A stretch of 64,000 bases of DNA from Enterobacteria phage Aplg8. The notes beneath the pieces are model-generated. The model made no database searches, had not been told where the DNA came from, and was given only the letters and a program-made list of their open reading frames with translations. The stretch lies in sequence record NC_054902.1. One strand, 5' to 3'. Positions within the stretch are counted from its first letter, which is position 1. Every line of letters begins with the position of its first letter. Made by a program: the position numbers and the translations under genes. Positions 56,059 through 58,541 of the stretch are shown in pieces.

Positions 56059-56640
56059 TCATTTATATACTGATTCCGTAAGGGTTGTTACTTCATCTAT
56101 TTTATACCAATGACTTTCAACCATTTCACGTTTGCTTATATCATCAAGAAAACTTGCATCTAATTGAACCGTTGAATTAACACGATGCCTTTTAACGATG
56201 CGAGAAACAACTACTTCATCTGCATAGGGTAATGCAGCATATAACAGAGCGGGTCCGCCAATTACACTAACATTAGAATTCTGGTCAAGCATAGTCTCGA
56301 ATGGCGCGCCAGAAATTGATACTTGAATTTCGTCGCCAGAAATGTAATCTATATATTGCTCCCAAGTAATATAGAAATGTGCTAAATCGCCGTCTTTAGT
56401 TACAGGATAATCGCGCTCAAGGTCACACACTACAATATGTCTACGACCTGAAAGTAATGTAGGCAATGACTGGAACGTTTTAGCACCCATAATCATAATT
56501 GTACCTTCGGTACGAGCTTTAAAATTCTGGAGGTCCTTTTTAACTCGTCCCCATGGTAACCCATCACCTAAACCGAATGCTAATTCATTAAAGCCTTCGA
56601 CCGTTTTAGTTGGAGAATAAGCGAATACCAATTTAATCAT
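56059..56640 (-). CDS. frd: dihydrofolate reductase
   Basis: 193-aa ORF; synteny with td. Confidence 0.93.
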
Positions 56641-56885
56641 TACGCAAAACCCCTTTCAAGAAACCATTCAGTGGCTTTATTAGCATCAAAGAATAATTCT
56701 TCGTAAGTCTTTTCTTTGTTTTCAAAAACTGTCACACAAACACGTTGACATTCTCCACAGTATTCTTCTGACATACTCAAAGCGTCAGAAAACATTTCAT
56801 TAAATTCATTTAAATCAGGATTATGCAATGCGTTAAAAATTGCATAATCGAATTCATCATTCATAAATTCAAATACAAAAATCAT
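56640..56885 (-). CDS. hypothetical acidic protein (T4 frd.1 position)
   Basis: 81 aa from the ATG at 56885 with GGAGGT Shine-Dalgarno; the ORF-track start is a GTG. Confidence 0.6.
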
Positions 56886-57241
56886 ATTACCTCCCACTGA
56901 AAGGGGCCAGAAGCAAATCCGCTATCTTTAATCATTTTAACTAAAGTTACCATTCCTCTGTTAACTGCTTGCGCGATTTCATCAAAAACTTCATCACTAT
57001 CACCATAAAGATCGCTAAAAAGTTCTAACACATTCTTCTGAACTTTTAATTTACAGCCAACAAATTCGCCTACAGTAAATTCGTTTCCGCCAACTCCAGC
57101 GTAAAACGTAATTACACCAGTTAATGGTCTTTCACTAGAACATAGGTCGTGTGATAAATTAATATAAGCCGTCCCGGGTACAGTTTTAAGTTGGCAACGA
57201 ATACTTACTCGAGCAATTCCAGCTACATGAATGTCAGACAT
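56882..57241 (-). CDS. hypothetical protein (T4 frd.2 position)
   Basis: 119-aa ORF. Confidence 0.6.
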   Translation of the reverse strand: MSDIHVAGIARVSIRCQLKTVPGTAYINLSHDLCSSERPLTGVITFYAGVGGNEFTVGEFVGCKLKVQKNVLELFSDLYGDSDEVFDEIAQAVNRGMVTLVKMIKDSGFASGPFQWEVI

Positions 57242-57251
57242 AGTATTTTCC

Positions 57252-57494
57252 TCAAATAGACTTTTTCACAATTTTCCAATCAGCTTTAAACTGATCAACG
57301 TCAGAGTGATAAATCCAAAATCCTGCGCTTTCACCGTCTTCATAAAGCGGACACCCATCGCATTCATCTTCCCATCCCATATCACGCAAAAGATGTTCAG
57401 CTTTTTCAATGAGTTCAGAATCTTTACCGATGATATTAAAATACCATTTACCTCTAACTTCTGAATCTTTGATGCTCTGACGTTGTAATCTCAT
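57252..57494 (-). CDS. hypothetical protein (T4 frd.3 position)
   Basis: 80 aa from the ATG at 57494 preceded by AGGAG; the longer track ORF would start inside the upstream promoter. Confidence 0.6.
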   Translation of the reverse strand: MRLQRQSIKDSEVRGKWYFNIIGKDSELIEKAEHLLRDMGWEDECDGCPLYEDGESAGFWIYHSDVDQFKADWKIVKKSI

Positions 57495-57515
57495 TTTATT
57501 CTCCTTAGTTGATAA

Positions 57516-57549
57516 GGCTATAGTATCACTACCATAGCCTGTTGTAAAC
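57516..57549 (-). promoter_or_regulatory. early promoter (GTTTAC-N18-TACTAT) with -10 inside a 10-bp inverted repeat
   Basis: plus GGCTATAGTA tcac TACCATAGCC; minus-strand -35 at 57544-57549. Confidence 0.55.
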
Positions 57550-57551
57550 AA

Positions 57552-57854
57552 TTATTTTTGAATTTTATCAAGCCACTTACCAAGCTTAATCATTTCTTTA
57601 GTAGCCTTTTCCATACTTCTGAACTTAACCAATAGAGGATAGGTATCGACACCCATAACTAAGCTAGTTACAAGACTGTGTTCACCCACAAGCCATAACG
57701 AATACGTTTGAATATCGAGCCCGTAATTTCTGTCTTTATGGACCCGTACACCCATCACTTCAAATTTCTCACTAGCTTTTTCTACCGCATCCAGGAAATC
57801 ATCTTTAGTCATATTAGGCCTTAAAAGTTTTTCGCAAAAGTTCAATGATTTCAT
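57552..57854 (-). CDS. hypothetical protein
   Basis: 100-aa ORF; the start may instead be the ATG at 57812 (TAA-ATG junction with the upstream ORF). Confidence 0.5.
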   Translation of the reverse strand: MKSLNFCEKLLRPNMTKDDFLDAVEKASEKFEVMGVRVHKDRNYGLDIQTYSLWLVGEHSLVTSLVMGVDTYPLLVKFRSMEKATKEMIKLGKWLDKIQK

Positions 57855-58194
57855 CTACATTGTTTTCGTCAACAATACAGTGAATTTTTGTTACGCCAGA
57901 AACCTTGTCTTTGACTTCATCTTTTTCAGAAGTCGGTTCTTTATACTCACGAAAACAATGAAATTCGTCTTCGCAAATTTCTAAAAGTCTATCTTTGAGG
58001 TAAAAATGCTTTCCATTTGCGCATTCAATGTGTTTTACTGCTTTATATCCATTAGCGACGGAAACTTCTTTAACTTCAAACCATCCGCCATTATCTCGAA
58101 TCGCTTTAACTATTGATGAATTAGAACGTGGGCTATAATTAATAAATGTATCAATAAGTCTTGGAACAAGCTCATACTTTTTGCCGATATACAT
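57814..58194 (-). CDS. hypothetical protein
   Basis: 126 aa from the ATG at 58194 with GAGGAAA Shine-Dalgarno; a hairpin at 58215-58232 lies between this start and the upstream ORF. Confidence 0.55.
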   Translation of the reverse strand: MYIGKKYELVPRLIDTFINYSPRSNSSIVKAIRDNGGWFEVKEVSVANGYKAVKHIECANGKHFYLKDRLLEICEDEFHCFREYKEPTSEKDEVKDKVSGVTKIHCIVDENNVDEIIELLRKTFKA

Positions 58195-58240
58195 TACGGT
58201 TTCCTCATTTTGATAGGGGCTTGATAGAGCCCCTTGATAA

Positions 58241-58468
58241 TTATTGTTCAATCAATCCCATGTAAAATTCTGCGTCTTCAGAATCCATGCCATCACAATA
58301 TTCATTAGCCATAAAGCGGGTGAGGTCTTCAAGAGGACCTTCAATAACGATTTGAATACTCCAAAACTTAGAATCTTGCACGCTTGTGATACTAAGTTCA
58401 GGATAACGATTACGAATAATTTCTTCAATATATTCAAAATCAACGATGTCAATATCAACTTTAGCCAT
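58241..58468 (-). CDS. hypothetical protein
   Basis: 75 aa from the ATG at 58468 ([11 protein letters not shown]...) with GAGGAAAATAAT upstream; early promoter at 58512-58541. Confidence 0.55.
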
Positions 58469-58511
58469 ATTATTTTCCTCTTTAATCATCAGCAGTATTG
58501 CCGATAGTTGT

Positions 58512-58541
58512 ATAGTACCATGGAAGGACAAGGATGTAAAC
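58512..58541 (-). promoter_or_regulatory. early promoter (GTTTAC-N18-TACTAT)
   Basis: minus-strand reading GTTTACA tccttgtccttccatgg TACTAT downstream of the gene 32 terminator. Confidence 0.5.

Follow-up and report, generated by a model that had tools for sequence, protein, structure and literature searches.

The closest described counterpart of the locus considered here lies in bacteriophage T4, where frd.1, frd.2 and frd.3 (NC_000866, T4p240-242) are found between gene 32 and frd, the dihydrofolate reductase (DHFR) gene. T4 Frd.2 has been described as an early protein that, judged by an amber mutant, is non-essential, and with GoF and MotB.1 it forms a family with a predicted LSm-like fold, characterized by a bent antiparallel beta-sheet of five strands (LSm/SH3-like) at the N-terminus (Kim et al., 2025, PMC12152347). 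Of the T4 genes of unknown function, frd.2 alone was "Fit" in a CRISPRi-ART screen (PMC11879866), and the primary transcript of frd.3 ranks among the most abundant NAD-capped mRNAs of T4 (bioRxiv 10.1101/2024.04.04.588121). In the hyperplastic regions of T4-type phages, promoter-early stem-loop (PeSL) cassettes are the sites where small genes come and go (Arbiol et al., 2010, PMC2839356; Comeau et al., 2014, PMC4122927), and their promoters in T4 and PST follow the consensus TTTACW-N17-TAYWAT (PMC4122927). Here we analyze the frd-gene 32 interval of Enterobacteria phage Aplg8 within a stretch of 64,000 nucleotides (nt) of sequence record NC_054902.1, hereafter the window, and argue that it very probably consists of six genuine protein-coding genes, which start at ATG codons preceded by Shine-Dalgarno (SD) sequences and lie in a hyperplastic early region.

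By nucleotide similarity, the window belongs to a Tequatrovirus, a T4-like phage. Megablast of positions 56000-59600 against deposited phages returned 895 matching records; the closest, all Tequatrovirus, are Escherichia phages JLBYU24 and TH09 (97.6%), followed by RB18 (96.0%) and GiZh (95.7%). The three frd satellites have the same order, strand and start codons as in T4, with amino acid (aa) identities of 100% for Frd.3, 96% for Frd.1 and 66% for Frd.2. T4 differs from the window in being devoid of three further genes, which we call A, B and D, and in bearing upstream of frd.1 an 84-nt module that the window lacks. The six-gene arrangement is shared with RB18, JLBYU24 (249-254) and AR1 (244-249); RefSeq annotates all six genes in RB18 (ORF235, ORF236, frd.1, ORF238, frd.2 and frd.3), although its B allele is distinct (65% aa identity to that of the window, 110 aa). 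The genes, their curated starts and the regulatory cassettes have thus all been described before. A, B and D are common hypothetical proteins that the annotations of hundreds of related phages already include, and the use of the present analysis lies in a clean gene model for the interval, with little import beyond annotation quality.

Six genes between frd and gene 32

The interval 56640-58531 is filled by six open reading frames (ORFs) on the minus strand, with no or minimal overlap. They are lettered F, E, D, C, B and A in transcription order, F being Frd.3, E Frd.2 and C Frd.1:

58241-58468, minus strand: frd.3 (F), 75 aa, acidic (isoelectric point 4.05); ATG 58468, SD GAGG; PF05798, E = 8e-40
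57814-58194, minus strand: frd.2 (E), 126 aa; ATG 58194, SD GAGGA; PF03197, E = 5.5e-33
57552-57812, minus strand: D, 86 aa; ATG 57812, AAGG 6 nt upstream; phrog_4423, E = 1.4e-49; absent from T4
57252-57494, minus strand: frd.1 (C), 80 aa; ATG 57494, SD AAGGAG; DUF5417 (PF17438), E = 1.4e-33
56882-57241, minus strand: B, 119 aa; DUF7247 (PF23905), E = 8e-31; absent from T4
56640-56885, minus strand: A, 81 aa, acidic (isoelectric point 4.05); ATG 56885, SD GGGAGG; phrog_3183, E = 3.9e-43; absent from T4

Profile searches against Pfam and PHROG matched all six over their full length. Frd.3 scored 135.6 bits in Phage_FRD3 (PF05798; gathering cutoff 28.1; residues 1-75 of 75), Frd.2 114 bits in FRD2 (PF03197; cutoff 29; residues 28-125), Frd.1 115.4 bits in DUF5417 (gathering score 23.9) and B 107.2 bits in DUF7247 (gathering score 27). 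Homologues of A, B and D were detected by tblastn in 450, 431 and 347 deposited phage genomes, respectively. An earlier sequence-only reading of the window had proposed six small ORFs between frd and gene 32, set them against about three named ones in T4 and suspected that some might be extra. The six ORFs all match phage families, T4 does have frd.1, frd.2 and frd.3 here, and the extra genes relative to T4 are A, B and D. Comparative genomics of the interval, which that reading had put forward as a check, was carried out on 22 related loci (RB18, JLBYU24, T4, T2, AR1, Ac3, SG1, ESh17, RB69, PHB12 and 12 IMG/VR contigs, the latter including Dhakavirus-like and VR-like phages) and revealed conserved short starts and a mosaic gene content.

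Frd.3 aligns to positions 317-391 of the 391-position phrog_1764 profile, the first ~316 positions of which approximate the length of gp32. This profile may be a gp32-Frd.3 chimera, which could explain why frd.3 is labeled "putative single stranded DNA-binding protein" in some records, e.g., that of JLBYU24.

Start codons

To estimate SD strength, the 17 nt preceding each in-frame start were paired with the 3' end of 16S rRNA and the duplex energy was computed:

frd.3: ATG 58468, -6.0 kcal/mol; TTG 58531, -2.4; ATG 58489, -1.7
frd.2: ATG 58194, -6.3 kcal/mol; longest-ORF TTG 58251, -4.0
D: ATG 57812, -3.7 kcal/mol; longest-ORF ATG 57854, +0.1
frd.1: ATG 57494, -9.1 kcal/mol; longest-ORF TTG 57551, +0.6
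B: ATG 57241, the only candidate, -6.2 kcal/mol
A: ATG 56885, -10.8 kcal/mol; longest-ORF GTG 56897, -1.5

Across the 22 loci, the codon for residue 1 is ATG with the same SD, the exceptions being a GTG for frd.2 and a disrupted A (ATA), both in Ac3; for frd.1, ATG and SD are identical across 23 loci. The long upstream starts are often missing or interrupted by stops: T4 lacks both the TTG and the ATG ahead of frd.3, a stop interrupts the frame 5 codons before frd.2 in RB18 and 8 codons before frd.1 in T4 and AR1, and the ATG equivalent to 57854 is missing in SG1 and AR1. Moreover, the short starts of frd.1, frd.2 and frd.3 are those of the T4 reference, and the RefSeq models of RB18 agree with the short starts, including an 86-aa D. 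The protein N-termini would accordingly be read from ATGs 58468, 58194, 57812, 57494, 57241 and 56885.

The sequence-only reading had moved the starts of A, frd.1, frd.2 and frd.3 to 56885, 57494, 58194 and 58468, and all four revisions hold on SD energies, conservation and the T4 and RB18 models. It had left D at its longest start, 57854, which has no SD, and so missed a fifth revision. We place the start of D at 57812 because of PHROG profile coverage, the RefSeq annotation of relatives and conservation. In the long, 100-aa version of D the profile spans residues 15-100 only, and the gene is annotated at 261 nt in RB18, JLBYU24, AR1, Ac3 and SG1. An exhaustive hidden Markov model search of a 1.84-billion-protein library recovered 12 representatives of the D family, all stand-alone proteins of 73-98 aa without fusions; they begin at profile position 1, save one N-terminally truncated copy of 64 aa, which is also without the extension.

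Predicted promoters, stem-loops and expression architecture

The regulatory features predicted in and around the interval are the following:

58572-58591, minus strand: gene 32 intrinsic terminator, GGGGACCTTTAGAGGTCCCC and then a T-run; 8-bp stem in the fold
58512-58540, minus strand: putative early sigma70-type promoter of frd.3, TTTACA-N17-TACTAT; TG precedes the -10, and an AT-rich tract precedes the promoter
58487-58506, minus strand: hairpin in the predicted 5' leader of frd.3, -8.9 kcal/mol, z = -4.0
58237-58266, minus strand: weak promoter-like site from a motif scan, TTTACA-N18-AATTAT, overlapping the end of frd.3, upstream of frd.2
58215-58234, minus strand: GC-rich hairpin GGGGCUC-loop-AAGCCCC in the frd.3/frd.2 gap, -12.8 kcal/mol, z = -2.2, without a T-run after it
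57520-57548, minus strand: putative early promoter upstream of frd.1, TTTACA-N17-TACTAT with TG, 3 nt past the D stop
57515-57540, minus strand: 11-bp hairpin at the frd.1 promoter, z = -3.4, overlapping spacer and -10

The PeSL consensus TTTACW-N17-TAYWAT occurs six times in the window where 0.27 matches are expected, each time on the gene strand, and two of these matches are the candidate promoters at 58512-58540 and 57520-57548. The site at 58237-58266 does not fit this consensus in its spacer (N18) and -10 (AATTAT), and its function is uncertain. A motif search found neither MotA-box middle promoters nor late TATAAATA promoters in 56640-58613; the genes thus resemble the T4 early class, which has sigma70-type promoters and neither of these elements upstream. 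The early expression predicted for the window agrees with the T4 literature on the Frd.2 protein and the frd.3 mRNA. An Rfam search over 55600-59700 gave a single chance-level match.

The four other consensus matches, all on the minus strand, lie at 20052-20080, 45106-45134, 61813-61841 and 62341-62369; at least those at 45106-45134 and 61813-61841 are followed within ~30-40 nt by an SD and an ATG.

The sequence-only reading had also located promoters or hairpins in the 5' extensions of the longest ORFs, which is right for frd.3, frd.2 and frd.1, three of the four, and wrong for A, whose 12-nt extension holds neither: it is the gene's own SD within the end of B. The 42-nt extension of D is the invariant 3' end of frd.2 in another reading frame. 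The extensions of frd.3, frd.2 and frd.1 read as regulatory DNA made up of predicted early promoters and stem-loops. All these extensions would be noncoding, consisting of promoter, stem-loop or SD DNA, or of the upstream gene's 3' end in a different frame.

The junctions are tight. The frd.2 stop is separated from the start of D by 1 nt (GCC TAA T ATG), the TGA of frd.1 forms part of the SD of B (TGAGGA), B and A overlap by ATGA with the SD of A (GGGAGG) inside B, and the TAA of A overlaps the ATG of frd (TAATG). Transcripts would start at the sigma70-type early promoters just past the gene 32 terminator and before frd.1, with the weaker promoter-like site preceding frd.2, and translation would begin at the six SD-preceded ATGs. 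Because of the junction layout, we propose three translational blocks, namely frd.3 alone, frd.2 and D across their 1-nt spacer, and frd.1, B, A and frd, in the last of which each stop codon lies in or beside the SD or ATG of the next gene.

The elements of the window share with PeSL cassettes an AT-rich tract, a consensus promoter, a stem-loop and, at the 3' end, the SD and ATG of a small gene. The terminator of gene 32 would double as the stem-loop of the first cassette. Indel boundaries are also located there, since the indel of D and that of the 84-nt module abut the frd.1 promoter element.

Several points weigh against the picture drawn so far. In the canonical PeSL layout the stem-loop precedes the promoter, and only the gene 32/frd.3 element is built in this way; the frd.1 stem overlaps the spacer and -10, and the frd.2 stem follows a poor, sub-consensus -10. 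PeSL membership of the window elements is therefore best regarded as partial. A generic sigma70 scan of the region did not exceed shuffled sequences (16 vs. 15.6), and only the T4-specific consensus is enriched. The SD of D is weak. The N-termini, the activity of the promoters at 58512-58540 and 57520-57548 and translational coupling are all predictions drawn from the letters of the DNA. Finally, B is the weakest case of the six, with a ratio of non-synonymous to synonymous substitutions (dN/dS) of 0.7-0.9 between allele types, i.e., weak constraint.

Mosaic gene content

Gene content varies from phage to phage, given here in transcription order except where the phage itself differs:

window, JLBYU24 and AR1: F E D C B A
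RB18: F E D C B A, with another B allele
SG1: F E D C A
loci L004 and L015: F E C B A
T2: F E C A
T4: F E C
PHB12: E C B A
RB69: E C
Dhakavirus-like and VR-like phages: E D F C

The junctions follow this content closely in the 22 loci and the window. Where D comes next, frd.2 ends in KTFKA (TFGI or TFEV in paralogues) and its stop, followed by 1 nt and the ATG of D; where D is absent, it ends in KTFKK and its stop, which abuts a -35 hexamer (TTTACA or TTTATA). The linker with the frd.1 promoter and SD is 91-98% identical to that of phages of other genera, in which td, frd, gene 32 and gene 59 reach 66-82%, and one TATCAAC...GAGGA leader heads different genes in different phages. We propose that the differences between phages would arise by gain or loss of whole gene cassettes, with crossovers falling in conserved linkers, either PeSL-type promoter/stem-loop/SD elements or the invariant 3' end of frd.2.

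The serious alternative to a PeSL-specific mechanism is ordinary short-homology recombination. On this account, which we regard as possible though rather unlikely, the differences in content from T4 came about by homologous or illegitimate recombination, or by exchange associated with homing endonucleases. In its favor, the canonical PeSL layout is seen in only one of the three elements, the boundaries of B and A are coding overlaps rather than promoters, and on either side of the indel of D, at the 3' ends of frd.2 and D, lie short A/T-rich stretches similar enough to each other for T4 recombination; in T4, moreover, the homing endonucleases I-TevI and SegG flank the region. Against it, the identity of the frd.1 linker to other genera is far above that of the core genes, the TATCAAC...GAGGA leader is shared before different genes, and a published comparison of PST and T4 ascribes such indels to PeSLs (PMC4122927). 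Cassette exchange at PeSL-type linkers remains the reading we favor.

The 84-nt module, located between the promoter and the SD of frd.1, is present in T4 and 201 deposited phages and absent from the window. It carries an unannotated hydrophobic ORF of 22 codons, MFAPYIMAAVMLVCLYLLIKAC, with its own SD (GGAGaaaagaaaATG) and a stop that overlaps the SD of frd.1. This ORF is found in T4 (6016-6084 of locus L003, minus strand, about 146015-146083 of NC_000866), in AR1 (2506-2574 of L018), at 3922-3990 in L004 and L015, and in the Dhakavirus MN04 (L023). Its variants are separated mainly by synonymous changes or by conservative substitutions among hydrophobic residues, and because MN04 retains all 22 codons upstream of a different gene, the comparison suggests a real micro-protein.

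Selection and gene reality

Nei-Gojobori estimates of dN/dS against relatives were as follows:

D: 0.02-0.06, at dS 0.5-1.2
frd.1: 0.02-0.17
A: 0.04-0.20 within Tequatrovirus; 0.24-0.36 against 39%-identical homologues
frd.3: 0-0.39
frd.2: 0.05-0.54
B: 0.18-0.88; 0.70-0.88 between allele types
gp32: 0.15-0.21 against Dhakavirus-like/VR-like loci
DHFR: 0.14-0.16 against the same loci, where dS is unsaturated

In the same comparisons, D is more constrained than gp32 and DHFR. Recent horizontal transfer as the sole cause of its conservation was rejected: with dS of 0.5-1.2 to Dhakavirus-like and VR-like phages, the conservation of D reflects purifying selection.

That one or more of the extra ORFs, B above all, is a decaying or spurious frame rather than a functional gene appears very improbable. 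The ratio of B between allele types, which differ by indels, would be compatible with decay, and searches with A, B and D revealed neither a function nor an informative fold match. Nevertheless, B is intact in 380 records at a coverage of at least 80%, has 32 invariant columns among homologues 64-99% identical to the window copy, matches a curated Pfam family and keeps its SD and ATG, and A and D are under strong purifying selection. By contrast, two antisense ORFs (57231-57464 and 58244-58507) and a 34-aa ORF that lies across the terminator and promoter (58489-58593) and is annotated in some records match no PHROG family and were judged spurious.

The last alternative, that translation uses the longest-ORF starts (GTG 56897, TTG 57551, ATG 57854, TTG 58251 and TTG 58531) and yields longer proteins, is extremely improbable: these codons are in frame in the window and longer versions do exist in some GenBank records (frd.3 of 249 nt in JLBYU24 and 252 nt in AR1, frd.2 of 402 nt in AR1), but SD pairing is negligible or weaker there (+0.6 to -4.0 kcal/mol, where the short starts range from -3.7 to -10.8), close relatives miss the codons or have intervening stops, promoter and hairpins sit inside the extensions, and no family member or profile includes the extension. 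Several public records therefore have over-long starts for frd.2 and frd.3, as in JLBYU24 and AR1, and wrong product names. Public records also disagree on other starts, AR1 giving frd 609 nt, and those of T2 and ESh17 call an ORF of 105-111 nt across the gene 32 terminator and the frd.3 promoter.

A metagenome protein, P0039 (196 aa), is a B-A fusion; if the T-run ahead of the stop of an RB18-type B changed in length by 1 nt, such a fusion would result. It may represent a sequencing error or a natural fusion of the two coupled genes.

Ac3 offers a case of local divergence. Its gp32 (gene 32 at 3810-4718 of locus L016) is 99% identical to that of the window in protein and 79% in DNA, with 169 synonymous vs. 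22 non-synonymous differences and saturated dS. Beside this divergent gene 32, gene 59 and D are 98-99% identical to the window in DNA. The gene 32 of Ac3 is a sharply bounded allele, very old or foreign, under extreme purifying selection; its frd.3 and frd.1 belong to the same observation.

Functions and the frd.2-D pair

PADLOC and NCBIfam scans of all six proteins gave sub-threshold noise only, and a sequence search of the PDB with A, B, D and Frd.2 found no match below E = 0.04. The AlphaFold2 model of D (pLDDT, the predicted local distance difference test score, of 70) comprises a helix, three strands and a helix, and that of B (pLDDT 68) five strands and two helices; both models are of moderate confidence. 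Foldseek of both against BFVD gave no match at E <=0.001, and neither had informative structural neighbors. As the orthologue of T4 Frd.2 in the same family (PF03197), the Frd.2 of the window is predicted to be LSm-like and is possibly an RNA-binding protein. B and D were considered as further members of the Frd.2/LSm-like group and rejected (hhalign probability <1%).

The two products of the frd.2-D pair evolve very differently. Between alleles of Frd.2, the N-terminal ~100 aa share 32-84% identity, even between phages otherwise ~95% identical, and the C-terminal 28 aa, SGVTKIHCIVDENNVDEIIELLRKTFK(A/K), encoded at 57814-57897, are nearly invariant, the last residue being A if D follows and K if a promoter follows. 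Across genera in which gp32 shares 61-65% identity, D retains 89-98%, and in the 16 D-carrying T4-like loci examined it always starts 1 nt past the stop of a gene of the Frd.2 family. Beyond T4-like phages, homologues of D occur in Phapecoctavirus, Webervirus and a Certrevirus, where Pfam detected no Frd.2-like neighbor beside it, nor did hhalign for KOX1 orf56, the only case compared in that way.

Most likely, the six proteins are non-essential early proteins with host-takeover or accessory roles, and our working view of A, B, D and the like is that they would be dispensable early accessory proteins acting in host takeover or counter-defense. With D nearly frozen and the LSm-like N-terminal domain of Frd.2 hypervariable, one may speculate that frd.2 and D form a translationally coupled module, in which a constant effector, D, is paired with a diversifying specificity or RNA-binding partner, Frd.2, for host takeover or counter-defense; we consider this improbable as it stands. 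The fast-evolving B could be another arms-race protein. Strictly linked to frd.2, D is the most constrained unknown of the region and the best target for study.

Neighboring genes

Every gene in this part of the window lies on the minus strand. Those flanking the interval are:

54787-55647, minus strand: td, without intron
55685-56050, minus strand: small ORF between td and frd, phrog_1928
56059-56640, minus strand: frd, the DHFR gene
58614-59522, minus strand: gene 32, with gene 59 next

In the window, td is uninterrupted, without the group I intron and I-TevI that T4 has, and segG, which T4 carries between genes 32 and 59, is not found there (59523-59621). The ORF at 55685-56050 probably starts at ATG 56038, which would give ~117 aa; T4, whose td and frd overlap, has no such ORF. 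Its orthologue in JLBYU24 is labeled "putative dihydrofolate reductase," which looks like a mis-annotation.

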